Assembly: GCA_934613415.1 (NCBI GenBank)
Contig: CAKTSY010000001.1
Span: 90,001-122,000, forward strand
Length of the DNA stretch: 32,000 nucleotides
Direction of reading: 5' to 3'
From: an uncultured Opitutales bacterium
Lineage (GTDB): Bacteria > Verrucomicrobiota > Verrucomicrobiia > Opitutales > Intestinicryptomonadaceae
Made by a program: the position numbers and the translations under genes. The notes under the pieces are model-generated. The model had not been told where the DNA came from. It was given only the letters and a program-made list of their open reading frames with translations, and made no database searches. Numbering within the stretch: the first letter of the stretch is position 1; each line of letters begins with the position of its first letter. Below, one piece after another: positions 13,211-31,446 of this stretch.

Positions 13211-13501
13211 CTATATTATCAACTCGCCTTCGGGATTATAGGTTTCGTTTTTGCCTATGGTATCTACTTTCTTTTCCCACTTATTGCCGGTCAAATAAAA
13301 TCTTACGCTATCGCGTTGCAAGTCTACAACTTCTTTTAGTTTAAGCTTTAGTTCGGTGTATTTCGTATTATCTACAACGCATTCGAACACCGAATTTTGC
13401 ACGCGTTGTCCGTAATTTTCGCATATTCGGGCAACGCGCCTTAAGCGAGTTTGCCCGCTTTTGGTTGCCGTTTCAACATCGTAAGTTACCACTACAAGCA
13501 T
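13211..13501 (-). CDS. cas2: CRISPR-associated endoribonuclease Cas2 (type I-C module)
   Basis: 96 aa. MLVVVTYDV...RLRRVARICENYGQRVQNSVFEC is the classical Cas2 ferredoxin-fold N-terminus. Confidence 0.9.
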   Translation of the reverse strand: MLVVVTYDVETATKSGQTRLRRVARICENYGQRVQNSVFECVVDNTKYTELKLKLKEVVDLQRDSVRFYLTGNKWEKKVDTIGKNETYNPEGELII

Positions 13502-13502
13502 A

Positions 13503-14525: not shown

Positions 14526-15181
14526 AATTCCTTTAATTTATCGAGATATTTCGATACGCAGTTTTTTTGTTTTTCGGACTTTGGCAGGCAAATATCTATA
14601 AGCGAGCAAGAGCGACATTTGGCCGAATATTCTGCCGAAATTGAAGTAGCTTTCGAAAATGCCATATGCATTTTTGCGGAAATATCAAAAACCTTTTCGC
14701 GCAATTCCAAATCGAAAAAAACAGTGCGCCTTCGCGCTATTTTACCGTAATACAAGTCGCCGCTTTCAATTTTTGTTCTAAAAGCCTCTTCCAAACAAAT
14801 TGCCTGCGCACACAGCTGCACTTCGTCGCAAATGCCCAATTTTTCGGTGCCGTGTTTATACTCTATGGGGCGCATTGTCCACAAGCCGTCAAACCCGCCA
14901 ACGAGTACGCCACTTAAAGACTCGCTAAGTTCAACAACATCGCAAACGCCATATAACCCAAGCGATTTAGACGAAACCTGCAAACCGTTAAGTTGAATGC
15001 TATCGCCGCGTTTGCGGCTTTTTAGCGGGTTATCGACATTTCTGTGCAAATAGGCACCCTCAAGCGTTAACGAATTTTCGCTCCATGCCTGAAAAACGTG
15101 TATAAGCGCCCATTGCCGTTTGCAAAAGGCGAAATGCTGAATGCCCGAAAGCATCAGCATATCGTCTTCGGAATACTCCAT
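14522..15181 (-). CDS. cas4: Cas4 RecB-like exonuclease
   Basis: 219 aa. N-terminal Cys (FAFCKRQW) plus C-terminal CRSCSLIDIC, the 4-Cys Fe-S cluster pattern, with a RecB-like core. Overlaps cas1 by 4 nt. Confidence 0.85.
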   Translation of the reverse strand: MEYSEDDMLMLSGIQHFAFCKRQWALIHVFQAWSENSLTLEGAYLHRNVDNPLKSRKRGDSIQLNGLQVSSKSLGLYGVCDVVELSESLSGVLVGGFDGLWTMRPIEYKHGTEKLGICDEVQLCAQAICLEEAFRTKIESGDLYYGKIARRRTVFFDLELREKVFDISAKMHMAFSKATSISAEYSAKCRSCSLIDICLPKSEKQKNCVSKYLDKLKEL

Positions 15182-16002
15182 TATTTCTTTACTTCAATTT
15201 CAACACCGTTCGGAGCTTGTCCAACCGAAAACTCGTAATCGCTAAACGAACGAGCAGGAACAGACGGGTCTTTTTTTGCAATTTTTATTAAATCAAAAAG
15301 CTTGTAGGAAGGAGCATTTCCTAGTGCTGAACTATGCTTAAAAATCACAAGTTTTTTTACGCTCATAAGGCCTCGGGCAGCAGAGCGGTCGCTTTCGAAC
15401 ATATTAAGAATAGCCTCCCATAAAAGAGCAAGGTCATCTTCCGAAAAACCTGTTTGTTCGGCAAGAGCAGGCGAGATAAAGCCGTGTGCAACATACAACC
15501 CGTATGGAACTGTAGATTTGCGCCCCATTGTTTGGTCTTTCCCGTCGTGTGCAATACGCGTTATTGTATGTTCCGAATACAAAATTGGATCAACAGACCT
15601 TGAAAACGTAAGCTGTACGGGACCGCGAACTTGCCCGGCGTTGTTTCCGCTACCGCTAGTTAACACAGCGCCAAATGTCCTAACATCGAAAAATTTAGAA
15701 CAAAATTCACTACAATTTACAGCACTTTTTTTGCTTTTCTTATCTCCTGCATCAGATTGTTCTGTCGAACTGTCTGTCTCTATCAATTCAGATTTTTGTT
15801 TTATGTAAATATCGAACGGCGGAACGCATTTTTTTGTAAGTTGAACATAGTTTCTTATCTTGCGTTTAAGACATACATCGGTAACAAGCCCCATACCCGT
15901 TTCAGCATCTATACGGGGAAGATTACCAGCATCTGGGTCGCCATTCGGGTTGCCGTCAGCAACATCAAAAACTATGGCAAAATCGTACTTATTTTCTATC
16001 AT
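15181..16002 (-). CDS. cas7: Cas7 (Csd2), type I-C backbone subunit
   Basis: 273 aa. FDVADGNPNGDPDAGNLPRID...TDVCLKRKIRNY is the Csd2 signature. Confidence 0.9.
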   Translation of the reverse strand: MIENKYDFAIVFDVADGNPNGDPDAGNLPRIDAETGMGLVTDVCLKRKIRNYVQLTKKCVPPFDIYIKQKSELIETDSSTEQSDAGDKKSKKSAVNCSEFCSKFFDVRTFGAVLTSGSGNNAGQVRGPVQLTFSRSVDPILYSEHTITRIAHDGKDQTMGRKSTVPYGLYVAHGFISPALAEQTGFSEDDLALLWEAILNMFESDRSAARGLMSVKKLVIFKHSSALGNAPSYKLFDLIKIAKKDPSVPARSFSDYEFSVGQAPNGVEIEVKK

Positions 16003-17746
16003 TTTCGTTCTCCTTATTTTCTATTGTTTCGTTTTCTTCTTTAGATTTAAAAAATTCCTGTCTTTGGTGATAATAACCAATTGCAAAGCGCGATTGTTCG
16101 TCTAGCGATAGATGAGCCGGAAAGCCTGTAGCAGGTATTTTATCCATAATCTCGCTAATTGATTTTTTCAGAAAGATAACCGTTCCTTGATTAGCTATTT
16201 TCGACAAATGGTGATTCGACAAATCTATAAGGCGCCCAAACACAAGCATTGGAGTAGAGGAAGCTGAACCATAAAATCTGTCTACAATTGTAGCATTAAC
16301 GTTTTTCCCCAACGCCGATTCCTGTATACGCTCTAACACGGCAAAAAGCCTGCCGCAAAGGTAGCCTATATCGTTATTTTCAATATCTAATGACACTTTT
16401 ATTTCCCTTTCTTTACTATTCAATATTCTATTTTTTCTGTTTAAATATGCTTTTAAAATTGCAGCTCTAATGCGATTTATTATCCTATCTGCACGAATTC
16501 TATTCGTACATTGCATTTGAAGCGACTTAGGATACATTCCGCCCGAAAGAATTGCAGAAACTAGCCCGCCTTCAATATTTGGAGGAATATTTTCAATTTT
16601 GTTACCTTGCGATATACAAGTAAGTATGTTGAAAATCGAAAACAATTCACGGTCATAAGAACTGCGAATTATTTCAAAATCAGAAAAATGCTCCGCTATA
16701 CGCGCGCCTATTGCCTGTTCTGTGTCGGCAATAAAAAAGCGTACCACCATTCTTGCTTTGTTTGAACAAATCCCCAAAACAAAAAACTTTCGGTCTTCAA
16801 AAACTTGTTTGCGACCGCTAAACACCGACTTATAAAGTGCCGAAATTGACGAACTCCAAGCATCTGGATTGTCTTTTTTAGGTATGTCAAATAACGAACC
16901 AAAAACATTTTCAATTTCAGAGTTTTTTGAATCGCTCCAAAAAACTATCTGCAAATCGCCAATTCTAACATGGTTGGTTTTGCTAGCAAGCAAACTTGAT
17001 AGTGCCGCAGTATAAGCCGACTCGGCGTACAATGAAACAGGCGCATTTTCGCCCTGGTCTTTATAGTACGAATCATACCCGCTAGACGTCTGGAACGAAA
17101 CGAGTTTAACCCCCGCCGTTTTACCAATAGTAAAACCGCCGTGTGTCATAACCGGAGCAGTTTTTTCGCCCGTTATTAGGCAAATAAATTTTTGTCCATC
17201 GCTAGATGTGTTCATAGTTTTAGCGAGAAAATCGGCAACATCGGGATTTTCAACAACAAGTTCTTTACCGCAAATTTTAAATGTTACATTGCACCCTGCT
17301 TTCTTAGAGCACTTTTCCCACTCGCTCGCATTCTTTATTTCTTCAAGCCTATTAGGATTTTCCACAAACTTGCGCACCGCCAAAAAATCTTTATTGTTTG
17401 GGTACATTTCCGAAAGTTTTATAATTTTTTCGGCGAACGCTTTTGTCTTTTTCATTGCCGCTTTAACATCTTTTTCAGAATCGCTTTTGGGAAACCCAAA
17501 CACATATTCTATATTATCCCACAGCAAATTTGCATCAACATTGCTGCTTCGCCCATTATTTTTTGGAACGCACAAAACACGCCCGTTTTTAGCGGAATCT
17601 GAACGGGTATCTTCAAGCGCAACTAACTTGCCGTTTTCGTCTATTACCACTAAAAATGGAATGGCTTTGTCTTCAAACCCAAGCGGGGCAATCTCTCCGA
17701 GTTTACTTTTGCGCTGATAATAATCATACAATGCTTTAAGTATCAT
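15989..17746 (-). CDS. cas8c: Cas8c (Csd1), type I-C large subunit
   Basis: 585 aa. Csd1-like N-terminus MILKALYDYY. Lies between cas5 and cas7 with overlapping junctions. In characterised I-C systems a Cas11-like product arises from an internal start in this gene. The only in-frame ATG candidate I saw is at 16516..16514 (MQCTNR...), and this is unverified. Confidence 0.85.
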   Translation of the reverse strand: MILKALYDYYQRKSKLGEIAPLGFEDKAIPFLVVIDENGKLVALEDTRSDSAKNGRVLCVPKNNGRSSNVDANLLWDNIEYVFGFPKSDSEKDVKAAMKKTKAFAEKIIKLSEMYPNNKDFLAVRKFVENPNRLEEIKNASEWEKCSKKAGCNVTFKICGKELVVENPDVADFLAKTMNTSSDGQKFICLITGEKTAPVMTHGGFTIGKTAGVKLVSFQTSSGYDSYYKDQGENAPVSLYAESAYTAALSSLLASKTNHVRIGDLQIVFWSDSKNSEIENVFGSLFDIPKKDNPDAWSSSISALYKSVFSGRKQVFEDRKFFVLGICSNKARMVVRFFIADTEQAIGARIAEHFSDFEIIRSSYDRELFSIFNILTCISQGNKIENIPPNIEGGLVSAILSGGMYPKSLQMQCTNRIRADRIINRIRAAILKAYLNRKNRILNSKEREIKVSLDIENNDIGYLCGRLFAVLERIQESALGKNVNATIVDRFYGSASSTPMLVFGRLIDLSNHHLSKIANQGTVIFLKKSISEIMDKIPATGFPAHLSLDEQSRFAIGYYHQRQEFFKSKEENETIENKENENDRK

Positions 17747-18447
17747 CTTAAAATCTCCCCGCTGTTAGGATTCGGCACGTTCAATACGCCGTTTTCAAGC
17801 TTTGCTCTAAAAAACATAGGCATTGGGTTTTTCATATTTGTAAAATCCATATCAAAAAGCATTATACCCAAGTCGCGCGTTTCGGAGATTGGCAGACACA
17901 ACTCTTCACCTGGTGCAACCAGTTTAAAGTTTGCCGAAAATTCCCTGCAACCCAAATACGGAGTGGTAAAACATTGACCTTTTGACGCCCTGCGCTCGAA
18001 TATTGCATTATATTTTGCAGGGTTTTCGTCGGCTCTAAACAACCTATCTTCATCTGCATCTAAAAGTTTAGACTTTTTCTCTCGCGGCATTCGTTTGCCT
18101 ACGGGGATAAAATCAAGCTCTGCATAAATTCTATAGCGCACGTCTTTTAAAAACATTCCCGATTTTTGCTGGCGTTTGTCCTCAATAAATATGCCATCGT
18201 TTTTCGCTGAAGCTAGGGCCGCTACTTCGTTTCGTTTTACCGAAACCCATTTGATGGGAGATAAAACCTCTATGCGTTTTACTATCCAATTTATTGCGGG
18301 TTTCCAAAATATGGCTTGAAAAATATTTCTGGCTGCCGACGGCGTCATTACATCGTAGCTTACCCTCTCTACTTTTAATTCTGGGCGAGTAAAACACGCG
18401 TAATCGCCCCACACTTCTATGCAAAATTCTTTATTTCTATATTCCAT
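17743..18447 (-). CDS. cas5: Cas5c (Cas5d), pre-crRNA processing subunit
   Basis: 234 aa. CIEVWGDYACFTRPELKVERVSYDVMTPSAARNIFQAIFWKP is the typical Cas5d N-terminus. Confidence 0.9.
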   Translation of the reverse strand: MEYRNKEFCIEVWGDYACFTRPELKVERVSYDVMTPSAARNIFQAIFWKPAINWIVKRIEVLSPIKWVSVKRNEVAALASAKNDGIFIEDKRQQKSGMFLKDVRYRIYAELDFIPVGKRMPREKKSKLLDADEDRLFRADENPAKYNAIFERRASKGQCFTTPYLGCREFSANFKLVAPGEELCLPISETRDLGIMLFDMDFTNMKNPMPMFFRAKLENGVLNVPNPNSGEILR

Positions 18448-18454
18448 AATATCA

Positions 18455-20701
18455 CTATACCATTAAAATATCGTTTAACACTTTATTATCTATTGTCAAT
18501 CCCATTTTTTCAGAATACAAAGTAGAATCTTTTAAAACGTATATACCGTTAAAATCTGCTATTTGCCCCATCGCCAAAGCGTCTTTAAGTTGAGATTTCC
18601 TAACCGAAACGCAATAGCGGCGAAGCTTGCGAAAGAAACGCGAATCTCCCAAATATCCGTCGCAAATGCGTTTGCACAAATCGGCTCCGTCGCGGTACGG
18701 AACAATAACTTCAGCACAATCGCTAGCGTCTATTAAACGAAAATTTTGGGCAGCCGTTTCAAATTGAAACTCGCCGTTGCAAGCACATTTAACAAGCAAA
18801 TCATAAATTTCTGGCTTATCAAAATTATTACATTTACCAAAAAAACATTCGAAATACTTTGCCACAACTTTGCGCGAATCTAATGCCTCGTTTTTACAAC
18901 AAAGAATAGTTTCGTTAAGTGCTTTCGCTCCACTGTATATAAAACCTAAATTAACCGGTTTTTTTGTTTTAAACACATAAACATTTCCATACTCTTTGCG
19001 CCCTTCGCGGTTGCAGCGACCAGCCGCTTGGATAATGCTGTCTAGCCCGGCATATTCTCTAAACACTTCTGGGAAATCCAAATCTACCCCCGCCTCTACA
19101 AGCTGCGTGGAAACCACACGCGTGCACTTTCCTAAAGCAAGAGATGCTTTGATTTCAGCTAAAACATCATCTATGTGAGCCGTGCACATCGACCGCGAAA
19201 GATGAAATGCGCTTTCGTCGTTTAACTTAGAAAATATTTCGGCAGCATGAGCGCGAGTGTTGCATATGCATAAGAATGAACCTGTGCGCAAATGCAAGTA
19301 ATCGGCAAAATCTGCAAGTTCAAATTCGCCTTCAATTAAATTAAATTTTGTACGCCTAAACGCAGCCTGCAATTCATCGCAATTTTTAATAATCTCTTGC
19401 ACATTTTTTATCGGAGAATCAAAGGCGGTAATGTTAGAACCAATTTTACCCGAAAATACGGGCTGGGTTGCGGTGCAAAACAGCACAGTAGCTCCGCCAA
19501 TTTTTACAAAAGCATCTAACCCCCATAGAATGGGTTTTAAAAAATCGGTAGGCAACATTTGCGCTTCGTCTAAAATTATAACGCTTTTGCAAATATTATG
19601 AAGTTTGCGCGTGCGCGACGACAAATTTGCGTACATAGACTCAAACAACTGTACATTTGTTGTAACAACAATCGGCGCGTCCCAATTTTCAGAGGCTAAG
19701 CGCGCCGCAGTAGGCTGTTCATTTTCGTCGAACAGCTTGTCTGGCTCAACATTAGAATGATGTTCTAAAACATTTTCGTCTCCAAAAATTTTTCTGTATT
19801 GTGCCGCCGTCTGCGAAATTATGCTAGTGTATGGAATTGCTACAATTACGCGCTTCTTGTCGTTTTTAACTGCAAATTTCAAAGCCCATAAAATCTACGC
19901 AAGTGTTTTACCTCCACCGGTGGGAACGCTAAGTGAAAAGTAGCTGCCTGTATAATTTTCTGCAGCATTGGAACATGTTTCATCTATGCCACAGCGCAAA
20001 CGGTTAATAGGCGTATCTGGAGAATTTTCAAAAAGCGTTTTTAAATGCAATTGCAATCGTTCTAGTAAAACTTCCAACGAATCGAACTTGCCTCGCTCCC
20101 TATCTGAATAGAAAAATTTTTCTGTATCTAAATAGTCTGCATCAACAAGAGCCGAAAACATAAGCCTTACAAGCATATTAATTGAAGACTTACTGACATC
20201 TATACCCTTAAAACTTTCTAATGGCGGAATTTTATTTTCTAAAAAGAATTGTTTGGCTCTATTGGCTACTAAATCTAAACATTCTTTTTTTTCAAGACGC
20301 GAATTTTTAACGCTATAATCTTGAAGCCCAGAATGGTGCCCTGCCGAAAGATAGTCTAGAATCGGCATTTTGTTGGTTGCGGCATATATAGCCCCAGCTG
20401 TCGAGTGGTCTACCGAGCCTTTGCGGTTTTTAGGGTCAGCGGACTTCTCGAAAACAGCGGCACGAATATATTTTTGAAAAGCATCAGAAAATTTCCCTAT
20501 ATCGTGAATCAGCCCAGCAGCATAACCCCAATTCTTGCAACCAAAAGATTCTGCAAATTCTGCGGCAAGCAAAGCTACACCCTTTAAATGATCGGGCAAT
20601 AAATGATAATAAGCCTTTTTCTCATCATCACTATCAAGCTTTATGTGCGCCACAAAATCGTTCATATTTCTAAAGCTATAATAATATTTTTTGATTGTCA
20701 A
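18455..20701 (-). pseudogene. cas3: cas3 (HD nuclease + SF2 helicase) interrupted by one in-frame TAG
   Basis: The HD motifs (HLLPDHL, GLIHDIGK) and Walker A (VPTGGGKTLA) end at TAG 19897..19895. The same frame continues ILWALKFAVKNDKKRVIVAIPYTSII... through helicase motifs (DEAQ, CTATQP). There is no frame shift. TAG terminates other genes in this window. Confidence 0.8.
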
Positions 20702-21066: not shown

Positions 21067-21108
21067 TTGCTCCTTCGATTATTTGCCTCCCCTCATAAGA
21101 CAATATTT

Positions 21109-22191
21109 CATGAGATTCACGCGCCAACGAGGGGCGCGACACGGCTCATTCTTGCTGAAATTGCCCTCAATGCGTTTCAATTCACGCGCCCGCGAGGGGC
21201 GCGACGGCTTTGAATGTATCGTATGCCGATTGTGTTACGTTTCAATTCACGCGCCCGCGAGGGGCGCGACTTTGTCTTGGTCTTTTTCGTCCGCTGCAGA
21301 CTTTTGTTTCAATTCACGCGCCCGCGAGGGGCGCTACCAGGGAGACTGGGCTGTTTGCTCGCAACGTTTTGGTTTCAATTCACGCGCCCGCGAGGGGCGC
21401 GACTCTGCGGTTTCATGTAATCAGTTGCGTCCATTTTATGTTTCAATTCACGCGCCCGCGAGGGGCGCGACAATGGTAGCGCAGGGAAAAGGAGCGCGAA
21501 GAGACGTTTCAATTCACGCGCCCGCGAAGGGCGCGACCGACGAGGACGAGTATTTTGCCGACTACGAGCAGGTTTCAATTCACGCGCCCGCGAGGGGCGC
21601 GACGGTATGGCTATATCAATCGGCGGCGTAATGGTGTTTCAATTCACGCGCCCGCGAGGGGCGCGACCTCGTAGTATTCCCTTTCGGGCACCCTTATAGG
21701 GGTTTCAATTCACGCGCCCGCGAGGGGCGCTACCAGATGAGCGTTTTGTGATGTGTGGTTATTGTGGTTTCAATTCACGCGCCCGCGAGGGGCGCGACGC
21801 TATGATAAAGCATTTTAATGACGTATTTGTAGTTTCAATTCACGCGCCCGCGAGGGGCGCGACTGCTTACAAGCCAGATTCCTATAGATAGCACAGTGTT
21901 TCAATTCACGCGCCCGCGAGGGGCGCGACTTGCCATAAAACAAAGAAGAACATTGGCAGAATCAGTTTCAATTCACGCGCCCGCGAGGGGCGCGACATTG
22001 GACTTGGGCGAGGGCAATGTATTGTTGATGTTTCAATTCACGCGCCCGCGAGGGGCGCGACGCACTTGATAGGCTATTAAAGAGAGGAGAAAACGTTTCA
22101 ATTCACGCGCCCGCGAGGGGCGCGACTACATCATCCGCCGATTATTCATTGGCACTCAAGTTTCAATTCACGCGCCCGCGAGGGGCGCGAC
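21109..22191 (-). CRISPR. Type I-C CRISPR array: 17 repeats of 32 bp, 16 spacers of 32-36 bp
   Basis: The repeat in crRNA sense is GTCGCGCCCCTCGCGGGCGCGTGAATTGAAAC, the canonical I-C stem plus ATTGAAAC tail, so transcription is on the minus strand. The leftmost repeat (21109-21140) has 7 mismatches, marking the distal end. Repeats at 21306 and 21702 carry the same G>T variant, and the repeat at 21506 carries a G>A variant. Confidence 0.97.
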
Positions 22192-22300
22192 AGTATATGG
22201 GTTTATCTATCTATTTTTCTGCGTTTGCAACGATTTTTTTGCGAAATACGAAAAATTTTTATTCTCTATATTGTATATTTCACATTTTTCTTCGCAACTT
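22192..22300 (-). promoter_or_regulatory. I-C array leader with a candidate promoter
   Basis: AT-rich sequence abuts the first, intact repeat. On the minus strand, TTGCGA (22297-22292), a 16-nt spacer and TACAAT (22275-22270) lie about 75 nt upstream of the first repeat. Confidence 0.4.
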
Positions 22301-22841
22301 GCTTAATATCAACATGTGCGAAAGCCCTGGCTTTTTTTGCGCGCTTGGGGTTCGCTTACGCAAGTTTGCCCTACTATTCTACCATCGTTTGTAGGTTAGA
22401 TAAAATATATTTGTTTTATGAAAGAAGCTGACGAGCAATGCAAAATGCCTCCTCTTACACGTCCTATAAACGCTTTCAACTTCTCTAAATTCAGTAGAAT
22501 TTATTCCTTTTTATAAATCAAGCGAAAAAAACATTCTTGCTTTTAATATAAATTTTAAAAGTATTTTAAGTTGGTTGGATAGCATAAGCCTGTAGGGTTT
22601 TGACCCAACGCATTTTTTGCCAGCTATTATCCAACCTCACCTTTTATAACATATTTTTGGAGTCTCCTTCTTGGGAAGACCGTCAAGCTTCCATTCAACC
22701 TACTACTTCTAGCAATGGCGGCGACGGTAATATTTCCGCTCGTCAAGAATCAAACTCTGCTTTTAAAGTCGAAAAATCCTACAAAAATATCAAGCAAAAA
22801 ACTTCTTGATTTTTTAAATCTGTTTATAGACGATATGTACC

Positions 22842-22938
22842 GACGATTGAAGCTTTTGAGCGTGGAAATTTTCGCCTGCCTACGGGATGAGTCCGATGAA
22901 GATGTGGCGTTCTTCCAAAAGCTTTAATCGTCTTTTTT
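22842..22938 (+). ncRNA. Structured unit D: 16-bp closing stem plus T6 (candidate sRNA or terminator)
   Basis: GACGATTGAAGCTTTT (22842-22857) pairs with AAAAGCTTTAATCGTC (22917-22932): 15 Watson-Crick pairs and 1 G-U. TTTTTT follows. Confidence 0.3.
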
Positions 22939-23222
22939 GCATATACATATTATTATCTGCAACTTTTAGAGGTTTTTGGTTGACTTTTAGAATTGTTGCC
23001 AGATTCTTACGAACGATTCTCAAAATTAGAGATATTCCCTCGTTTGACTTATGGGAGGTACGCTTGCTGGGAAGAATCGATTGGCAAGATATTAGGTGTA
23101 TACCACTGGTAAGCTATTCGCAGAAATGCGTGGGGCTTGCTTTGTTTTTAATAGAATTGCTTTCTTTTAGTATTACCAATTTTTTGTTGACAGTACTTAT
23201 TCATTTAAAGAGGCTTTTTGCA

Positions 23223-23310
23223 GAATCCGAGAACAGCTCGAAAGAGTCAGGGAATGACGAAGCTCCTTTTTGGACAGGCAGGTTCCCGCCCATCTCGGAT
23301 TCCCTTTTTT
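23223..23310 (+). ncRNA. Structured unit E: 10-bp closing stem plus T6
   Basis: GAATCCGAGA (23223-23232) pairs perfectly with TCTCGGATTC (23293-23302), followed by CCTTTTTT. A GAAA-tetraloop hairpin (GCTCGAAAGAGT) lies inside. Confidence 0.3.
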
Positions 23311-23356
23311 GCATATTTTATTGACAGGCAAAAAACTTATAGCACCCTGCGCATTA

Positions 23357-23430
23357 GAACGGTATTGTTAGTGTCAAACGGGGCTTTATTGCCAACGCGC
23401 GCCTTAAATTGCAACACCGTTCCTTTTTTT
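23357..23430 (+). ncRNA. Structured unit F: 7-bp closing stem plus T7
   Basis: GAACGGT (23357-63) pairs with ACCGTTC (23416-22), followed by CTTTTTTT. The interior contains CGCGCGCCTTAAATTGCAAC. Confidence 0.3.
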
Positions 23431-23488
23431 ATATATGACGTCTATTTGATAATGTAGATTTTGCGCTATTTGTAAAAAGCATTTTCTC

Positions 23489-23589
23489 TTGACTTTTGCG
23501 GCGTTATTTTAACCTTTAATTTAGACACTTGAGAAGCGTTGCCGTTATTCGCTACGGACTTGAACACGTTATCAAGTGTCTCTTTTTTT
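23489..23589 (+). ncRNA. Paralogous structured unit A (candidate small RNA)
   Basis: TTGACTTTTGC box. Outer stem AGACACTTGA/TCAAGTGTCT (10 bp). Inner hairpin CCGT/ACGG. Invariant CTTGAAC (23559-65). Ends CTTTTTTT. Confidence 0.4.
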
Positions 23590-23773
23590 GCACAAATATA
23601 AAAATTTCTTATACCGCAAAATTTTTCTTGATAAAAAAGAATTTATAAAACCTAGTTTATGTGGGCTTTCGCGGGGTTGTGCCAGATTAACAATGCCGTC
23701 TTTTTATATCTAAAATGTTGCATTGCAAACATTTGCATTTTCTTTTATTCTTACAAACCGCCAACAATACGTC

Positions 23774-23873
23774 TTAACTTTTGCAAACCATTTTTCAAGC
23801 ATACACTAAGACGCTTACGATATTGCCCCTTAAGTGGTGGTCTTGAACATATCCTTAAGCGTCTCTTTTGTTT
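23774..23873 (+). ncRNA. Paralogous structured unit B (candidate small RNA)
   Basis: TTAACTTTTGC box. Outer stem AGACGCTTA/TAAGCGTCT (9 bp). Inner hairpin GCCCC-TTAAGT-GGTGGT. CTTGAAC (23842-48). Ends CTTTTGTTT. Confidence 0.4.
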
Positions 23874-23908
23874 ATACAGACAAAAGCCCTACACATAAAA
23901 AATTTTAT

Positions 23909-24009
23909 TTGACTTTTACAAACGGTATTTCGACTATATTGCCCGACGCTTGGGAGGCGCGCCCTTAAGTGGGCGTCTTGAACGCCCCTTCAAGCGTCTC
24001 TTTTGTTTT
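23909..24009 (+). ncRNA. Paralogous structured unit C (candidate small RNA)
   Basis: TTGACTTTTAC box. Outer stem GACGCTTG/CAAGCGTC (8 bp). Inner hairpin GCGCCC-TTAAGT-GGGCGT. CTTGAAC (23977-83). Ends TCTTTTGTTTT. Confidence 0.4.
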
Positions 24010-24056
24010 GTTAAAGTTTTCTGTTTTACATGCAACAGCATCGTTTGTGAATAAAC

Positions 24057-24180
24057 AAAAAAATTGGGCCAAACAAATGTTTGGCCCTTATTTGGTGGAC
24101 ATAAGTCCTTGTTAACGGATATGTATTTTGCAATACAACAGGGTTTTACCCCAGACACCGTTCTTTGATTTCTACAAACT
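24057..24180 (-). ncRNA. Candidate tracrRNA of the II-C system (strand assignment provisional)
   Basis: Positions 24160-24177 are identical to 18 nt of the minus-sense repeat, so they are complementary to the array's plus strand. The minus-strand transcript would read UUUGUAGAAAUCAAAGAACGGUGUC..., then hairpins UGUAUU-GCAA-AAUACA and GGAC-UUAU-GUCC, then a 9-bp GC-rich terminator GGGCCAAAC-AUUU-GUUUGGCCC followed by AAUUUUUUU. Confidence 0.6.
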
Positions 24181-24295
24181 CCCATTAATGAGAGTGTATG
24201 CAACCTTTCACAGAAAAAATATTTTGTCAATATTTTTATTGCATTTATTCTATAAATATTTTATATGTCAAATAAAGTTTAAACAATATAAATAT

Positions 24296-27200
24296 ATGAG
24301 CGATAAGAAAGTTTTAGGTTTTGATATGGGTGCAAATTCGATTGGCTGGTGTATGCAGTTAATAAATAACGAATGTAAAACCGTTGATATACTAGGAATG
24401 GGGACAAGAATTTTCGACAATTCGAGAGACCCTAAAACCAATGTTCCATTATCCGTAAAAAAGCGTATGGTTAATGCGGCGTCCGTACGGCGAAATCGAC
24501 AAATTATGCGCACAAAAAACGTATGCAAAATTCTCAGAAAATTCGGGTTATTACCAAAAGACGAAAAAAGTAGTGTATCCAAACGAAACCCATATAAACT
24601 AAGGGCAAAAGCAGTAAAAGAAAAGATAGATTTATTCGGCATAGGTCGCATTATTTTACATATAAATAAGCGCAGAGGCTTCAAATCTAACCGTAAAATA
24701 GATAAACGCGCCGACGACAAAGAAACCAAAGGGATGAAGGCCGGCATATCTAGACTGCGCGAAATGCTAAAAGATAAAACTCTGGGCGAATTTTTATACG
24801 AGAGAAAAATTGCAGGTAGTTCGGTAAGAATGAGGGCCAATGTAATAAAAAACAAAAATGAATATGAGATATATGCCGAACGCGATATGTACGAAACAGA
24901 ATTGGCAAAAATATGGGAGACACAAAAGAAATTTCACCCTTGCCTAACAGACGACATGTACAGGGAAATATCTAACGCAGTATTTTTCCAACGTCAATTA
25001 AAAGTTCCCGAAAGAGGCTTTTGTCAATTTGAACATACAGAACACCGCGGGTATAAAGCATATCCTATTTTCCAAAAGTTTAGAATTTTGCAGGAGATTA
25101 ATGCACTAGAAATTATTGATATCAATGCAAGCAATGAAAATAAGCTTTCTGTTGAAGAGAAACAAAAACTGGCAAATGCCCTACTTTACAACGACAATAA
25201 ACTTGTTGATAAAAAACAATTTGCAAAATTTTCCAAAATCAAAAAATTTTTAAATATACCCGATACATTTAGTTTTAATTTCGAAAGCGAGAATCGCAAA
25301 GGACTCTATGGCAATTTAACAGATGCTGTTATGGCATCAAACAAATGTTTCGGCGAAAGTTGGCGTAATATAGACGATACAATTAGAGAAAAATTGATAG
25401 ACCTTGTAATGGCTGACAATGAACAAGGATTCATTGCATTGTGTTTTGAACACTTTAAAATAGAAAAAGAAGAGGCAAAAAATATCCTTAATGAATGCTT
25501 TGATTTAACCGACGGAACCGCATCGTTATCTTCATTGGCTATGCATAAAATTGTTCCTTTTTTAGAAAAAGGCGAATTATACCACAATGCTTGTGCCTTA
25601 GCTGGCTATGATTTTAACGTCAATTATAATGGCGAAAAATTCGACGAACTGCCATATTATGGGAAAATTTTAAAAACCGCCGTACTTGGTGGAAATCCAA
25701 ACTTCGATCCCGAGACATTCCCAGAAAAGCACTATGGAAAAATCAATAATCCCACCGTACACGTTGCACTAAATCAGTTACGCAAACTCTACAACAAAAT
25801 TATTTCTGTTTATGGGAAACCAGACAGAATTGTAATTGAAACTGCCAGAGAATTACCTATGGGGCAAGAATCGTTAAAAGGTCTCCTTTCGGAACAAAAA
25901 GAAAATACAAAAAAGAACAAGGAAATTGCCGAAAAATTAAAAGAATTAGGAGAATCCAACACCCCAGAAAACAGAATGAAATATAAGTTGTGGGAAGACC
26001 TAAGCGAGGATATTGCAAAAAGAATTTGTCCGTTTTGTGGAGAAAAGAAAATTGAGGCAAAAAATTTATTTACACCGGAATTTGAAATAGAGCATTTATT
26101 GCCATTTTCCGAAACTTTTGACGATTCGAGGGCAAACAAAGTAATTTCTTGCGCTAGCTGCAATAGAGTTTTTAAAGGACAACGCACACCCTACGAAGCA
26201 TTTGCAAACCGCGAAAAATATAGTTGGGATGGAATCATGGCAAGAGTATCTTTGATGCCAAAGTCAAAACAATGGAGATTCCGCCCAGATGCAATGGAAA
26301 TATTCCGCGAAAAATACGGTGACTTTACTCAACGTATGCTAAACGACACAAGATATATGTCGAAAGTTGCAAGAGAATATTTTACCTCAGTAATTGACGC
26401 GAATAATATTATTACCGTTCCAGGGCAAATTACTGCAATGTTGCGAAAGGAATGGGGGTTAAATGACATATTAAGACCCACTCCTCTAACGGAAAGCAAT
26501 AAGCAAGACAAAACGCTAATGGAAATTGTCAGCGAAACAACAACAGAAAATGATGAGGATGAATCTGACGAAGACAGCGACAAAACGAAAGGCAAAAAGA
26601 AATACCGCGGAGATAATAGACACCATGCAATAGACGCATTTGTAATTTCTTCAGTCAACCGCAACTTAATATCAAAAATTTCAGAAGCATCTAAGATGGC
26701 TGAAAAAGCTGGTTTAAATGATTTGTTAAAACAAATTCCAAAACCATTTTCAACTAACTATATAACTTACGATACTTTTAGAAAAAAAGTTTTATCAATA
26801 GTAGTTTCGCATAAGCTTGATAGAGGTGATGTAAAAACAGCGATAAAAAACCATAAAACTGTTGCGAAATTACACAACGATACAGCATTGGGGAAAATTG
26901 GCAACGAAATTGACGGAAAAATAACAATTGTAAAACGTGTGCCTTTAAATTCCATAGAATGCACAGATAAAGATATATCGGAAATCGCAACGCCAAAAAT
27001 TCGCAATGAACTTTTAAGCATATACGAATCGATATATTCAGATTCAAGCATTAAAGATTTGCCTGAGAAAAAACAAAAAAATGCGATAAAGGATATGTGG
27101 GCAAAAAAGTTAGATGAATACTGCAATGCCAATAAGATTAGACGTGTTAGAATACATATAAAAAACCGTGAAATAAAAAAGCTTGTTCCTATTGCAGACA

Positions 27201-27598
27201 AAAACGGTGTTATCTATAAGTATATGGAAAATGCTGAATCGTATTGTATGGACATATATGATACAGGAAGCGGCAAATGGCAATTTGAGGTTATAAATAT
27301 GTTCGATGCCCATAAAAACAAAATGCCCCAATGGAGAAAAAACAATCCCCACGCAAAACTTATTATGCGTTTGTTTAAACGCGACGCGATTGCCTACGAG
27401 GAAAACGGCGAATATAAAATTGCTATAATTAAGAATGTAGCTACTCACGGACAGATAGGCATTCTTCCGCCAAGCGTTGCAAAAGTTGATGGCAATGTTC
27501 CAAAAAAAATTCCATCTGCCTTACAAGAATTGAACGCTCGCAAAGTTTATATAGATGAAATTGGCCGCGTATTTGACGCTTACAAAAATAAGAAATGA
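24296..27598 (+). CDS. cas9: Cas9, type II-C (1100 aa from MSDKKVLGFDMG)
   Basis: RuvC-I GFDMGANSIGW. RuvC-II IVIETAREL. HNH EIEHLLPFSETFDDSRANKV...NRVFKGQRTPYEAF. RuvC-III NRHHAIDAFV. Arg-rich bridge helix RRNRQIMRTKN. Followed directly by cas1 and cas2, with no csn2 or cas4. Confidence 0.95.
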   Translation: MSDKKVLGFDMGANSIGWCMQLINNECKTVDILGMGTRIFDNSRDPKTNVPLSVKKRMVNAASVRRNRQIMRTKNVCKILRKFGLLPKDEKSSVSKRNPYKLRAKAVKEKIDLFGIGRIILHINKRRGFKSNRKIDKRADDKETKGMKAGISRLREMLKDKTLGEFLYERKIAGSSVRMRANVIKNKNEYEIYAERDMYETELAKIWETQKKFHPCLTDDMYREISNAVFFQRQLKVPERGFCQFEHTEHRGYKAYPIFQKFRILQEINALEIIDINASNENKLSVEEKQKLANALLYNDNKLVDKKQFAKFSKIKKFLNIPDTFSFNFESENRKGLYGNLTDAVMASNKCFGESWRNIDDTIREKLIDLVMADNEQGFIALCFEHFKIEKEEAKNILNECFDLTDGTASLSSLAMHKIVPFLEKGELYHNACALAGYDFNVNYNGEKFDELPYYGKILKTAVLGGNPNFDPETFPEKHYGKINNPTVHVALNQLRKLYNKIISVYGKPDRIVIETARELPMGQESLKGLLSEQKENTKKNKEIAEKLKELGESNTPENRMKYKLWEDLSEDIAKRICPFCGEKKIEAKNLFTPEFEIEHLLPFSETFDDSRANKVISCASCNRVFKGQRTPYEAFANREKYSWDGIMARVSLMPKSKQWRFRPDAMEIFREKYGDFTQRMLNDTRYMSKVAREYFTSVIDANNIITVPGQITAMLRKEWGLNDILRPTPLTESNKQDKTLMEIVSETTTENDEDESDEDSDKTKGKKKYRGDNRHHAIDAFVISSVNRNLISKISEASKMAEKAGLNDLLKQIPKPFSTNYITYDTFRKKVLSIVVSHKLDRGDVKTAIKNHKTVAKLHNDTALGKIGNEIDGKITIVKRVPLNSIECTDKDISEIATPKIRNELLSIYESIYSDSSIKDLPEKKQKNAIKDMWAKKLDEYCNANKIRRVRIHIKNREIKKLVPIADKNGVIYKYMENAESYCMDIYDTGSGKWQFEVINMFDAHKNKMPQWRKNNPHAKLIMRLFKRDAIAYEENGEYKIAIIKNVATHGQIGILPPSVAKVDGNVPKKIPSALQELNARKVYIDEIGRVFDAYKNKK

Positions 27599-28518
27599 AA
27601 GAATGCCAAATAGTTGAAATTGAAAACGATGCTAGATTTATTGGCGTCGAACGCGGTTTTTTAGTTATAAAAAATTTAGGAACAGAAATTGGCCGTATAC
27701 CGCTTGATTCTATTTGTGCCGTAGTTTGCACCGCAAACTATGGCACAGTAAGTACACAAACAATATCTGCTTTGTCGGAATATAATATACCGCTTGTTGT
27801 ATGCAACAAACGTACAAAAACGCCAACTTGCGTGCTAATTCCTTTAGCCTACAATTGGCGTCAAGGCGATATAATGGAGGCGCAAGCTTTTTGCACTCAT
27901 AGCAAAAAGAAACTAGTTTGGAAAACCATTGTAAAAGCAAAACTTTTACAACAATCTCAAGTTTTAAAATATTTAAATAAACCTTTTGAATTAATTAAAA
28001 ACTTATCTGATATGGTTAAAGCAGGCGACCCCGAAAATATTGAAGGCAGAGGTGCAAACGCATATTGGAAAATATTGATGGGACAATCTTTTAGGCGCAA
28101 TAGGGACGACGAAAACGAAAATATATTATTTAATTATGGTTATACAATTTTACGAGCGGCAACAATAAGAGCAATTTGTGCTGCCGGTTTAAACCCAAGC
28201 ATTGGGGTACACCACTGCTCTTCTACAAACCAAGCCAGACTAGCAGACGATTTAATGGAATCGTTTAGACCTTTTGTAGACATAAAAGTTTTTGAAATTT
28301 GCCAAGACGGCGACTCGGAACTTAACAAAGAAAATAAGAAAAAATTAAGTTCGGTTTTAACGGATAGGTATTTTAGAAAAGAAAAAATAACGAGCGTTCA
28401 ACAAATGCTGTACGACACCGCTATAGATTTTGCAAAGTTTTGCTCAAACGAAATAACAGAATTTAAAATCGATATAGTAAAAAGCAAAAACCTATGCAAT
28501 ACGAACAATGGAACTTAG
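27595..28518 (+). CDS. cas1: Cas1 (type II module)
   Basis: 307 aa. The ATG overlaps the cas9 stop (ATGA). Motifs NILFNYGYTILRAATIRAI and GVHHCSSTNQARLADDLMESFRP. Confidence 0.9.
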   Translation: MKECQIVEIENDARFIGVERGFLVIKNLGTEIGRIPLDSICAVVCTANYGTVSTQTISALSEYNIPLVVCNKRTKTPTCVLIPLAYNWRQGDIMEAQAFCTHSKKKLVWKTIVKAKLLQQSQVLKYLNKPFELIKNLSDMVKAGDPENIEGRGANAYWKILMGQSFRRNRDDENENILFNYGYTILRAATIRAICAAGLNPSIGVHHCSSTNQARLADDLMESFRPFVDIKVFEICQDGDSELNKENKKKLSSVLTDRYFRKEKITSVQQMLYDTAIDFAKFCSNEITEFKIDIVKSKNLCNTNNGT

Positions 28519-28837
28519 TGGTTATAAACTTATGTGGATGATGGTTATGTTTGATTTACCGACGGCTACAACCCAAGAACGCAAACAGTACTCGGATTTC
28601 AGAAATATGCTATTGGATAATGGGTTTAGTATGTCCCAATACTCGGTATATTTTAGATTTTGCGGAGAAAGAGAATGTTGCGCAAAATATGTCAGAAAAA
28701 TAAAGATGTCGGCTCCGCCAGAAGGAGATATTTCAATATTGTTTTTTACGGATAAACAATTTGGACAAATTATAAACATAATAAAAAGAAAATTTGTTAG
28801 ACCTAAGAATACACCCGAACAATTACAACTTTTTTAA
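28508..28837 (+). CDS. cas2: Cas2 (type II module)
   Basis: 109 aa. LMWMMVMFDLPT...FRNMLLDNGFSMSQYSVYFRFC is typical of type II Cas2. Overlaps the cas1 end. Confidence 0.85.
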   Translation: MELSGYKLMWMMVMFDLPTATTQERKQYSDFRNMLLDNGFSMSQYSVYFRFCGERECCAKYVRKIKMSAPPEGDISILFFTDKQFGQIINIIKRKFVRPKNTPEQLQLF

Positions 28838-28848
28838 AGCATAAAAAA

Positions 28849-28885
28849 ACTCCCATAATCTTCAAAAAAATGGGAGTTTTTATTT
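28849..28885 (+). terminator. Terminator after the II-C cas operon
   Basis: Stem ACTCCCA (28849-55) / TGGGAGT (28871-77) followed by TTTTTATTT. Confidence 0.6.
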
Positions 28886-28934
28886 CATGTAATAGCACAT
28901 AACTCGGTAAAACACACATAGTTATAAATGCTAA

Positions 28935-29959
28935 ATTGTAGAAATCAAAGAACTGTAGTCAATCCGCAACAAATATTATGAAATACTATATTGTAAAAAA
29001 ATTGTAGAAATCAAAGAACTGTAGTCAATCCGCAACACCTTGGGTGCTCAATTCGAAAACCCAATTATTGTAGAAATCAAAGAACTGTAGTCAATCCGCA
29101 ACCGACAAGCACAATTACAAAGGGCAAATGGAATTGTAGAAATCAAAGAACTGTAGTCAATCCGCAACGATATTTCTTTTTTGTTATCGGCTACTTTGAT
29201 TGTAGAAATCAAAGAACTGTAGTCAATCCGCAACCAACATAACCCGTTCGACATTGATACTGTCATTGTAGAAATCAAAGAACTGTAGTCAATCCGCAAC
29301 TGAAAAAATGAACACAAATTTAGATATAAATTGTAGAAATCAAAGAACTGTAGTCAATCCGCAACAACAGGCAGTTTTCGTTTACCGCCTGCGAGATTGT
29401 AGAAATCAAAGAACTGTAGTCAATCCGCAACGTTATCGAGGACTATGACAAGCAACAAATTATTGTAGAAATCAAAGAACTGTAGTCAATCCGCAACGTT
29501 ATCGAGGACTATGACAAGCAACAAATTATTGTAGAAATCAAAGAACTGTAGTCAATCCGCAACCAAGTATAAATTTTATTCGCTGTGGCAGCGATTGTAG
29601 AAATCAAAGAACTGTAGTCAATCCGCAACCTATGTACAGAACACCCGTCCGGGAGATACATTGTAGAAATCAAAGAACTGTAGTCAATCCGCAACGAACG
29701 TGCACTACATAAAGCAACAAAACAGATTGTAGAAATCAAAGAACTGTAGTCAATCCGCAACCGAAGAACCTAAGGTTGAATTTTTGTCGCAATTGTAGAA
29801 ATCAAAGAACTGTAGTCAATCCGCAACTTATAAGCTTGTTGACGTTGTTTTAGTATTATTGTAGAAATCAAAGAACTGTAGTCAATCCGCAACTCATTTT
29901 TTGCTTGACGCCCCTTTTTAAAAATTGTAGAAATCAAAGAACTGTAGTAATTTCAGAAA
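28935..29959 (-). CRISPR. Type II-C CRISPR array: 16 repeats of 36 bp (last one degenerate), 15 spacers of 29-30 bp
   Basis: Plus-strand repeat ATTGTAGAAATCAAAGAACTGTAGTCAATCCGCAAC. Minus-sense repeat GTTGCGGATTGACTACAGTTCTTTGATTTCTACAAT. The repeat at 29924-29959 keeps only the first 25 nt in plus sense. Spacers 8 and 9 are identical. The minus orientation is preferred (TTGACT-N16-TACAAT in every repeat; ends in TACAAT like Neisseria II-C repeats) but is not proven. Confidence 0.95.
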
Positions 29960-29985
29960 AAGACCGCAAGTGCGGTCTTTTTTTA
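29956..29985. terminator. Bidirectional terminator between the array and the convergent hydrolase gene
   Basis: AAAAA-AGACCGC-AAGT-GCGGTCT-TTTTTTT. Confidence 0.7.
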
Positions 29986-29999
29986 TTTATTTATTTGTT

Positions 30000-31283
30000 T
30001 TATTTTCTTTTGGGCATTTCGTCGACAATGTTGCCGGTTTTTAGCATTTCGCTGATTTTCGAAGCCAAAAATAGGTAGTGGTCTTCGGCAACGCCTTCGG
30101 TGCCTACAAATGGGCAGCCTTCCGCTACGGGCGGTTCTTTACGGAGTTTGAATATTGCGGTAGCTTCGTCTATTTCGTCGAACATCGAAATATATATCAT
30201 ATTTGCGCCGCCTTCTACAGCCTCTTTGCCCATTTCCCAGAAAAACTTTCCGCCAAGTCTTGGCACTTTGTTAAGCTGCGAAGATTTCACAAATTTGGGA
30301 TTGTTTTTCATCTTATTATGCCACGAAAAACCCGCATAAATTGTGGGCATATACGAAATATTGTTTTTGGTGCACCACTCTACGTCGTCGGAAACAACAT
30401 CGGCAAAAATATTTTTCTTAGCCATCATTTTGCCTTCTTTTTTATTATAGTTATAACGCCCAACATTCCACGGAGAAACAATGTCGGCATATTTTTTAAG
30501 GAAATCGTGCAAATAGGGTTTTGCCTTAGAGCAGTCGCCATCGGCCTTCCTAAAGCCAGCACCAGTGCCAATCATAATAGAGCAGTTGCCGTAAACGGGA
30601 TCGTTCTTCAAAAAGTCCAGGAACTTAACTAAGTCGGTATCCTGCACAAAGTTAAGCCTGTCGTTAAGCCCTATTCCCCATATACATACAAGGGGCTTGC
30701 CGTTATGGAAAACGTAGGTATCTTTAGAAGTAAGCGCCAATTCGTCGAGCAGCATTTTCCAGTCTTTAATAAGGCCGTCGGCGACTTTTTTGCCGCCCAT
30801 ACCGCTTAAGTCGTACATTACAATCATACCGACTTTATATTTTTGCGAAGCCTTCATGCAGTTGCCCATAATTTTTACCCAGTCTTGCCAATCGGCTCCC
30901 TTGCGGGTTGTATGGTAGTAAAATCTCTGCACAAAGGCTGCGTCAATGCCGTATTCTTTCATCCACTTAAAGTGCAAGTCGCTTGTAGAATAGTCAAGCG
31001 AGCTGAACATTTGAGCGGGTTTGCCGTCTTTTTCCAAAAATTTTGTATCGTAGGTTTTTTCGTATTCGCGCATATCCGGCCACATATCAACCCTGCAAGT
31101 TTCCGGGTCGTACAGCCTAAAAAGTTTGCCTTTGCCGCCGTCGAGCGGGCATCTAAACCAAGCCTGATATCCCGTAACCAAAAGCTTGTCGCAACTTTTA
31201 AATATGGGCGTTGTTGTGTGTTTGCTCTGTGCAAAGGCCGAAATTGCAAATGCGCACAATATTATTGTTAATAATTTTTTCAT
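30000..31283 (-). CDS. Secreted glycoside-hydrolase-like protein (TIM-barrel; family uncertain)
   Basis: Likely start is MKKLLTIILCAFAISAFA (signal peptide) at 31283; the ORF track start at 31343 is probably an over-extension. Motifs DMWPDMREYEKTY and HFKWMKEYGIDAAFVQRF recall carbohydrate-active enzymes. Confidence 0.6.
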   Translation of the reverse strand: MKKLLTIILCAFAISAFAQSKHTTTPIFKSCDKLLVTGYQAWFRCPLDGGKGKLFRLYDPETCRVDMWPDMREYEKTYDTKFLEKDGKPAQMFSSLDYSTSDLHFKWMKEYGIDAAFVQRFYYHTTRKGADWQDWVKIMGNCMKASQKYKVGMIVMYDLSGMGGKKVADGLIKDWKMLLDELALTSKDTYVFHNGKPLVCIWGIGLNDRLNFVQDTDLVKFLDFLKNDPVYGNCSIMIGTGAGFRKADGDCSKAKPYLHDFLKKYADIVSPWNVGRYNYNKKEGKMMAKKNIFADVVSDDVEWCTKNNISYMPTIYAGFSWHNKMKNNPKFVKSSQLNKVPRLGGKFFWEMGKEAVEGGANMIYISMFDEIDEATAIFKLRKEPPVAEGCPFVGTEGVAEDHYLFLASKISEMLKTGNIVDEMPKRK

Positions 31284-31302
31284 TGTCATACAAAATAAAG
31301 CG

Positions 31303-31446
31303 TTAAGACAAATACTGTTGCATAGTTTCGCAATTTTGGCCAAAAAAACCTTTCGAAATTGTTACTCCCCTGTCGTCGGTAGATGTACACCCCGAAAAAA
31401 CTACGGCCAACGCTGCCAAAACTAACATAATCTTTATAATTTTCAT
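31303..31446 (-). CDS. Small lipoprotein (47 aa)
   Basis: MKIIKIMLVLAALAVVFSGC has a lipobox. Lies immediately upstream of the hydrolase-like gene. Confidence 0.4.
   Translation of the reverse strand: MKIIKIMLVLAALAVVFSGCTSTDDRGVTISKGFFGQNCETMQQYLS

Follow-up and report, generated by a model that had tools for sequence, protein, structure and literature searches.

A tandem array of phased, putative small-RNA units in a strain-variable spot between two CRISPR-Cas loci of a gut Opitutales bacterium

What occupies the DNA between two neighbouring CRISPR-Cas loci, and does it belong to either of them? The question is raised by a 32,000-nucleotide stretch of an uncultured Opitutales bacterium (NCBI GenBank assembly GCA_934613415.1, contig CAKTSY010000001.1, positions 90,001 to 122,000), called the window here; positions refer to it unless a contig is named. 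Contigs identical to the window originate from human gut metagenomes. The region studied, 22400-24050, separates the leader of a type I-C CRISPR array from the trans-activating CRISPR RNA (tracrRNA) of a type II-C locus. A sequence-only reading had proposed that this region holds a cluster of small structured plus-strand transcription units and had implied a link to the two CRISPR-Cas loci. The cluster is borne out in silico by six phased units, their T tracts and compensatory base changes; the association with CRISPR is not. A tandem array of putative "sibling" small RNA (sRNA) genes, each transcribed independently, is the best reading, at about even odds.

Six units on the plus strand (U1 and U3 to U7, 22806-24009) share one build. 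An A/T-rich tract usually comes first, a TTGACA-like hexamer lies 34-36 nt before a helix of 7-17 bp, and this helix closes 54-91 nt of sequence and runs directly into a T tract. Together with weaker candidates and a direct repeat, the units are laid out as follows.

From 22537, plus strand: U0, weak; TTGCTT at 22537, helix 22574-22578 / 22605-22609, TTTTTT 22613-22618.
22537-22816, plus strand: leader-distal segment that holds U0; common to strain type C (listed further below), with 88.6% identity to L031; its structures are not significant by themselves.
22806-22938, plus strand: U1; -35-like TTGATT 22806-22811, 36 nt before a 17-bp helix that includes one G·U pair (22842-22858 / 22916-22932); TTTTTT 22933-22938.
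22980-23150, plus strand: U2 region, weak, boundaries uncertain; TTGACT at 22980 and 23044, simple hairpin 23108-23141, run TTGTTTTT; z -2.4 for the hairpin and -1.0 to -1.2 for longer transcripts.
23187-23310, plus strand: U3; TTGACA 23187-23192, 36 nt before a perfect 10-bp helix (23223-23232 / 23293-23302), then CCTTTTTT.
23321-23430, plus strand: U4; TTGACA 23321-23326, 36 nt before a 7-bp helix (23357-23363 / 23416-23422), then CTTTTTTT.
23489-23589, plus strand: U5; TTGACT 23489-23494, 34 nt before a 10-bp helix (23523-23532 / 23572-23581), then CTTTTTTT.
Within 23628-23749, plus strand: U5b, weak; TTGATA 23628, hairpin 23671-23699, CTTTTT.
Within 23628-23749, plus strand: U5c, weak; promoter-like site 23687-23716, hairpin 23724-23737, T-rich run; like U5b (z -1.3 and -1.6 for U5b and U5c) indistinguishable from chance.
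23774-23873, plus strand: U6; TTAACT 23774-23779, 35 nt before a 9-bp helix (23809-23817 / 23856-23864), then CTTTTGTTT.
23909-24009, plus strand: U7; TTGACT 23909-23914, 36 nt before a 10-bp helix that includes two G·U pairs (23945-23954 / 23989-23998), then TCTTTTGTTTT.
22932-22944 and 23304-23316, plus strand: 13-nt direct repeat CTTTTTTGCATAT at the 3' borders of U1 and U3.

Seven main closing stems had been read from the sequence, and all are present where they had been placed, except that three of the starts given (23489, 23774 and 23909) are those of the upstream TTGAC-like hexamers and not of stems. Three "weaker" structures, which had brought the proposed number of terminator-like elements to ten, fold no better than shuffled sequence, and neither do U2, U5b and U5c (z -0.3 to -1.5). 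Closing stems of 7 bp or more that lead into a T tract number nine on the plus strand and one on the minus strand. Across 300 dinucleotide shuffles of 22400-24050, the corresponding plus-strand number is 2.9±1.75, and for stems of at least 9 bp it is 0.43±0.67 (shuffle maximum 3) against five observed. Because the loose criterion of a 7-bp closing stem with a T run is common everywhere (~1.8 per kb-strand over the whole window), stem numbers alone are unconvincing.

The plus-strand structures resemble classical intrinsic terminators in that a helix leads directly into a U tract in a strand-specific manner. They differ in that the helix closes a structured RNA of 54-91 nt rather than a loop of 3-8 nt, and in that a phased promoter-like element precedes them, not a gene. 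A scan for classical terminators (a G+C-rich stem with a 3-8 nt loop and a T run) returned zero plus-strand sites in 22400-24050, so that none of the structures passes the consensus. They are long-range closing helices whose enclosed "loop" is 34-57 nt of structured sequence, with the T run present.

The phasing is not random. Units with TTGAY 34-36 nt upstream of a closing helix of at least 7 bp plus T tract number six in the region, all of them plus-strand and inside 1.2 kb, and 0.15 in shuffles (maximum 2), and such units occur at ~0.07 per kb-strand in 361 kb of unrelated loci. No other strong unit was seen in ~100 kb of same-species DNA. The hexamers read TTGATT, TTGACA, TTGACA, TTGACT, TTAACT and TTGACT in U1, U3, U4, U5, U6 and U7, respectively, and the TTAACT of U6 is TTGACT in strain L054. 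The tracrRNA is preceded by the same build, TTGACA-17-hexamer(A2,T6)-7, and the tRNA-Pro gene in the window by TTGACA-17-TTTTAT. This shared geometry identifies TTGACA as a working -35 element in this organism.

No coding signal accompanies the units. The region spans 1.65 kb rather than the 1.9 kb first given, and it is as poor in open reading frames (ORFs) as the sequence-only reading had described, with no credible gene. Its longest ORF (145 aa, 22887-23324) crosses three hairpin/T-tract units and matched only itself among 1.84 billion representative proteins, and no ORF of the region matched a Pfam family above threshold. Small proteins and leaderless mRNAs drop out as candidates because the ORFs pass through the terminators and end differently among paralogues. 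The minus strand had been described as free of ORFs of at least 60 aa; a 98-aa ORF (23934-24230) does span the right edge of the region and overlap the tracrRNA, and is judged spurious. A decayed gene or a remnant of an insertion sequence or miniature inverted-repeat transposable element (MITE), either of which would have undercut the proposal, finds no support given the lack of a Pfam match, the orphan status of the 145-aa ORF and the absence of a match in the phage and plasmid collections.

Several of the units are related to one another. U5, U6 and U7 can be aligned through promoter, body and terminator; in their outer helix (P1), two positions are changed on both sides with pairing kept, and in the inner helices (P1b and P2) the sequence differs from paralogue to paralogue and pairing is retained. 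An 8-nt asymmetric unpaired loop, UCUUGAAC, is invariant in U5-U7, and the apical loop UUAAGU is common to U6 and U7. Read by eye against U7, U1 is ~70% identical in promoter and 5' arm; at a position that is C-G in U5-U7, it has an A-U pair. On these alignments, U1, U5, U6 and U7 are paralogues with compensatory helix changes. They are also more stable than shuffles (z -3.6 for U1, -3.35 for U5, -2.7 for U6 and -3.1 for U7), with none of 200 shuffles as stable as U5 or U7. The predicted U1 RNA, ~91-97 nt long with a minimum free energy of -35.8, folds into a three-way junction.

Comparison among sister strains separates the array from both CRISPR-Cas loci. Strain types were drawn from a metagenome pattern scan, which gave L031, and from look-ups via the neighbouring GH71/99-like gene. 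Contigs of the same species whose Cas9 is identical or nearly so show 99.4-100% identity and were uninformative. The types are these.

Type A, this window: U0-U7 and II-C.
Type B, L054 (95.9% identical): I-C, U0-U5 and a hybrid of U6 promoter and U7 body; no II-C.
Type C, L031, L048 and L049: I-C and the 22400-22824 segment, followed by U7 alone; II-C absent.
Type D, L051 and L052: I-C whose repeat is a variant, then U1, U4 in truncated form, U5 in altered form, and an internally deleted U6.
Type E, L045-L047: CRISPR-Cas absent within 10 kb; U1, U4 in truncated form, U5 missing the 5' arm, U5b, and U6 missing the -35.
Type F, L050 (NCBI metagenome-assembled genome (MAG) GCA_034180465.1): U3 only, directly adjoining the GH gene.

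Across all six strain types, the array stops at the 3' end of one and the same GH71/99-like gene; a GH71/99 orthologue in another, more distant species (54% identity) has no array. Nothing in the window is homologous to the left flanks of L045 and L050. On the side away from the GH71/99-like gene lie OMP/OmpA-like genes and a GAP1-N2 protein in L045 (7934-17098), SHMT, RpiB and others in L050 (2000-11760), and the I-C cas genes and tRNA-Pro in the window. Judged by gene content, these differing flanks mark a synteny break, or island hotspot.

Junctions between the strain variants sit at unit borders. The 13-nt repeat CTTTTTTGCATAT forms the U1/U4 junction in types D and E, where its recombination removes U2-U3 (L045, L051) and where the U2 block is missing; in types C and F the junctions show TTTAT microhomology. 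The type B hybrid is the product expected of unequal crossing-over between U6 and U7. Because the GH71/99-like side is constant, the other flank changes and the junctions fall at unit borders, the array is a strain-variable feature of a recombination hotspot that owes its position between the CRISPR loci to their insertion there.

The II-C island itself (24011-29955; tracrRNA, cas9, cas1, cas2 and array) is a presence/absence polymorphism among strains. In its place, L031, L048 and L054 have 22 nt (GCATCTGGCAAAAAATGTAGGGC-like), flanked by the U7 T tract and the terminator at 29958. The U6-U7 spacer (23876-23900) contains GCCCTACA, the reverse complement of TGTAGGGC in this 22-nt segment (L031 917-940), which may be the trace of an inversion at the insertion site or may be chance.

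The implied tie to the two CRISPR-Cas loci is not supported by these comparisons. Units occur without II-C (L031, L048, L054) and without any CRISPR-Cas within 10 kb (L045, L050), and co-occurrence among related genomes ties the array to the 3' flank of the GH71/99-like gene, not to the CRISPR loci. That the array is part of the type II-C locus is rejected; Cas9 relatives (57-63% identity; gut Opitutales/Verrucomicrobiota MAGs) share with the window only the tracrRNA region, 24054-24252, and the three strains just named have units without II-C. Alignment of the II-C repeat to the region is at chance level. A general I-C companion is likewise out, since Cas3 relatives of 72-76% identity (L041, L042, L044) lack such units.

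How the units have fared between strains bears on whether they are maintained. The window and L054 differ at ~55 positions in 1.4 kb, none of them within the 88 nt of closing-helix arms of U1, U3, U4 and U5; this hints at constraint and is weak evidence of it because the differences are clustered. In types D and E, U1 has 94-96% identity amid neighbouring sequence that is ~80% identical; it retains its three-way-junction fold there, and three of four helix changes still pair as G·U. In the U6 orthologue of L045, the inner stem CCCC/GG-GG has become CCAU/AUGG, a compensatory change.

If the units are sibling sRNA genes, transcription, termination and any trans-acting role might proceed as follows. 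Each strong unit would have a sigma-70-type promoter made of the A/T-rich upstream tract, a -35 of TTGACA/T and a weak -10 hexamer 17 nt downstream, a geometry that would place the transcription start within a few nt of the 5' arm. After 54-91 nt, the 3' arm would pair back onto the 5' end, and the closing helix with six to eight U residues would act as an intrinsic terminator. The released RNA would be compact: a helix would hold its two ends, and the internal and apical loops would lie open. These loops (UCUUGAAC in U5-U7; UUAAGU) could contact a partner RNA or protein. The array would grow, shrink and decay through duplication and recombination between conserved unit borders.

Several observations weigh against the array as a set of sRNA genes. 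The -10 hexamers are poor (GACGAT, GAGGCT, ACCCTG, ACCTTT, AAGCAT, GACTAT), with mostly only A2 and T6 kept. Whole U3 and U4 RNAs are no stabler than shuffles (z about -1.3) despite their perfect 10-bp and 7-bp stems. Decay is plain in sister strains: U4 is truncated in L045 and L051, with its 3' arm lost and its -35 mutated; U5 occurs without its 5' arm and U6 without its -35 or with an internal deletion; the U3 orthologue in L050 is 91% identical yet has four uncompensated helix changes; and three G-to-A changes break inner pairs in the L031 copy of U7. On the strain comparison, this turnover is a birth-and-death pattern in which individual units are dispensable, and since U7 is the sole strong unit of type C, no unit is essential. 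The family was found solely in one species-level clade, so the covariation evidence rests on few sequences. Finally, no antisense complementarity above chance, and none longer than 10-11 nt, was found within the 32-kb window.

Much of this turnover would also be expected of neutral debris: an intergenic segment with a terminator would have been duplicated in tandem, its copies would arise and decay by recombination in a hotspot and serve no function as RNA, and TTGAC would be carried along. Units are freely lost, truncated and mutated among strains, junctions fall at repeated borders (the 13-nt CTTTTTTGCATAT repeat and TTTAT microhomology), the L031 copy of U7 has pair-breaking changes, and the family is confined to its clade. 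Debris does not readily explain why the 34-36 nt spacing recurs in U3 and U4, which cannot be aligned to U5-U7, or why compensatory changes preserve helices among diverged paralogues. U1 is far better conserved than its surroundings across four strain types, and the closing arms are free of substitutions between the window and L054. On balance, neutral debris is unlikely, if still worth taking seriously.

A different use of the same DNA would be a one-way stack of terminators, an insulator that shields the tracrRNA, or the convergent GH71/99-like gene in II-C-less strains, from antisense plus-strand transcription. All units point toward the 3' end of the GH gene, the last unit in II-C-less strains lies 30-60 nt from the bidirectional GH terminator, and every helix is followed by a T tract. 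An insulator, however, needs no phased promoter-like element before each stop, strong single terminators already stand at 29958-29985 and 24066-24087, and the long-range helices fail the classical terminator scan; an insulating role is thus improbable.

The position of the array also invites a more speculative proposal. The II-C island starts right where the T tract of U7 stops, the I-C block extends to the U0b/U1 border, and the deletions all end at unit borders. The minigenes might then be the active part of a defence-island hotspot, with their borders (T tract, GCATAT/TTTAT and TTGAC) serving as modules for the capture and exchange of defence loci; alternatively or additionally, the RNAs might act in phage defence or in the control of neighbouring immune loci. 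This proposal is given a low probability.

Small RNAs beside type I CRISPR-Cas have a precedent in regulatory RNAs derived from CRISPR repeats, namely CreA/CreR and the type I-C crlRNAs from solitary repeat units (bioRxiv 10.1101/2024.12.27.630466, PMC8501985). In these too, a hairpin precedes a short single-stranded stretch that is conserved and then a terminator or 3' hairpin, and crlRNAs of type I-C that carry one pseudo-repeat plus a 3' hairpin have been described (bioRxiv 10.1101/2024.12.27.630466). By analogy, the units could be crRNA-like RNAs (crRNA, CRISPR RNA) that I-C Cascade loads to repress a promoter, or repeat decoys. The inner hairpin of U7 and the bases after it (GCGCCC-UUAAGU-GGGCGU, then CUUGAAC) look like the I-C repeat (CGCGCCC-CUCGC-GGGCGCG, then UGAAUUGAAAC) and give the best local repeat alignment in the region; the array adjoins the I-C leader in four of six strain types. 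The resemblance is at chance, however, with an alignment score of 16 against 15.5±2.0 in shuffles, 92 of 200 of which reach it. CUUGAAC does not reproduce the 11-nt handle UGAAUUGAAAC, and the U5 inner stem is unrelated to the I-C repeat. Putative pseudo-spacers have no seed match (at most 2 mismatches in 12 nt) flanked by a TTC or TTA protospacer-adjacent motif in the 32-kb window. The reading is further weakened because strains without CRISPR-Cas carry units, with no cas genes within 10 kb of U1 and U4-U6 in L045 or of U3 in L050. A crRNA-like origin is very improbable.

Least credible of all is that the units are attC-like or transposon-end-like recombination sites and the array a run of empty cassettes or MITE remnants: like integron attC arrays, the region has imperfect inverted repeats of 55-95 bp with strain-specific, cassette-like gain and loss at unit borders, and it lies at a synteny break where entire defence loci come and go, but no integrase, transposase or recombinase domain is found among the window ORFs, there are no cassette ORFs or attC core motifs (by reading, the arms lack RYYYAAC/GTTRRRY-type core sites and flanking target duplications), the copies have diverged and are not near-identical, with no others in ~100 kb of same-species DNA, no phage or plasmid matches the array, ordinary recombination at the 13-nt direct repeat accounts for the junctions, and the T tracts and TTGAC phasing suggest transcription signals.

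Other identities were examined and set aside. Rfam, searched at the gathering threshold and at E up to 10, offers no family for the region: two tRNAs are the only hits in the window at gathering score, and the best matches within the region have E of 0.36 or worse, far below gathering. The array has no blastn match in phage and plasmid collections. Viral contigs hold no match to unit interiors, and seven matches to the promoter-like pattern cover the pattern only, consistent with chance. Further unit copies are absent from the phage, plasmid and viral collections as well as from the ~100 kb of same-species DNA. A protein sponge of the CsrB/RsmZ kind is out, with GGA at 7.3 per kb against 6.8 per kb and no enrichment. 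Type I toxin-antitoxin loci are out, the opposite strand having no hydrophobic mini-ORFs. Anti-Shine-Dalgarno seeds are moot, since genes here lack Shine-Dalgarno sequences: these are almost absent from the 30 nt upstream of 18 start codons in the window, where the DNA is A/T-rich, as in Bacteroidota.

The features that surround the array are the following.

13211-20701, minus strand: type I-C cas operon.
21083-22191: I-C CRISPR array, transcribed leftwards from its leader.
22192-22320 (right end approximate), minus strand: I-C array leader, with promoter-like TTGCGA-16-TACAAT (22297-22270) pointing leftwards into the array.
~24195-24055, minus strand: type II-C tracrRNA, which converges on U7; anti-repeat TTGTAGAAATCAAAGAAC, promoter TTGACA (24230-24225)-17-AAGGTT, terminator 24087-24066.
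24296-27598: II-C cas9, then cas1, cas2 and the array 28935-29955.
29958-29985: strong terminator on the GH71/99-like gene side of the II-C locus.
30000-31343, minus strand: GH71/99-like gene, which adjoins the array in all strain types.

Both CRISPR-Cas loci have features of their own. The tracrRNA lies on the strand opposite to cas9, its anti-repeat is perfect over 18 nt, and its terminator (24066-24087) looks bidirectional; a 200-nt tracrRNA stretch is 72-80% conserved beside cas9 in L001, L003 and L004. Within the II-C array, two successive spacers at 29421-29552 are identical (GTTATCGAGGACTATGACAAGCAACAAATT), a repeat-spacer duplication. The type I-C cas3 of the window (18455-20701, minus strand) is split into a 475-aa ORF with the helicase domains and a 268-aa ORF with the HD domain. 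Because the sister strains L028, L029, L051 and L054 have a single Cas3 of 736 aa, a frameshift may have inactivated the I-C interference nuclease of the window strain. Strain type D has a variant I-C repeat, GTTTCAATTCACGCGCTCGCGAGGAGCGCGAC, with compensatory stem changes (L051 8230-8330 against window 21083-22191), and an apparent second array following cas2.

Between the I-C leader and U1, a ~140-nt stretch (22673-22816; L031 660-810) is nearly unchanged in strain type C. It contains the hairpin GGAAG-N9-CUUCC; at its end, an A/U-rich hairpin (ATCAAG...CTTGAT, 22789-22810) with TTTTTT behind it overlaps the U1 -35. The fold of the stretch is not significant. A 70-aa ORF over the stretch is frameshifted in L031, and because of this the stretch is probably non-coding.

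Sibling sRNAs are known in several bacteria, Pseudomonas PrrF1/PrrF2 and OmrA/B among them. Tandem arrangements have been described for LhrC1-5 of Listeria (PMC5880928) and NgncR_162/163 of Neisseria (PMC5362039). As in such arrays, the units studied here are head-to-tail paralogues with no ORF, each with a promoter and Rho-independent terminator of its own (here predicted in silico), common short exposed motifs and a copy number that varies by lineage. The present array differs in having more copies (six strong units, up to ten), in a predicted RNA that amounts to a single long closed helix, with the closing stem doubling as terminator, and in very fast turnover among strains of one species. 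It has no sequence or Rfam kinship to any described family.

The Opitutales (Verrucomicrobiota) are, to our knowledge, a gut lineage in which hardly any riboregulators are known. Should the units be expressed, they would constitute an undescribed sRNA family in this order and an unusually large sibling-sRNA array, one whose fast turnover would expose the birth and death of sRNA genes between strains of a single species. The locus also indicates that DNA lying between two CRISPR-Cas loci may belong to neither; here, both loci are strain-specific insertions into a variable spot that was already there.

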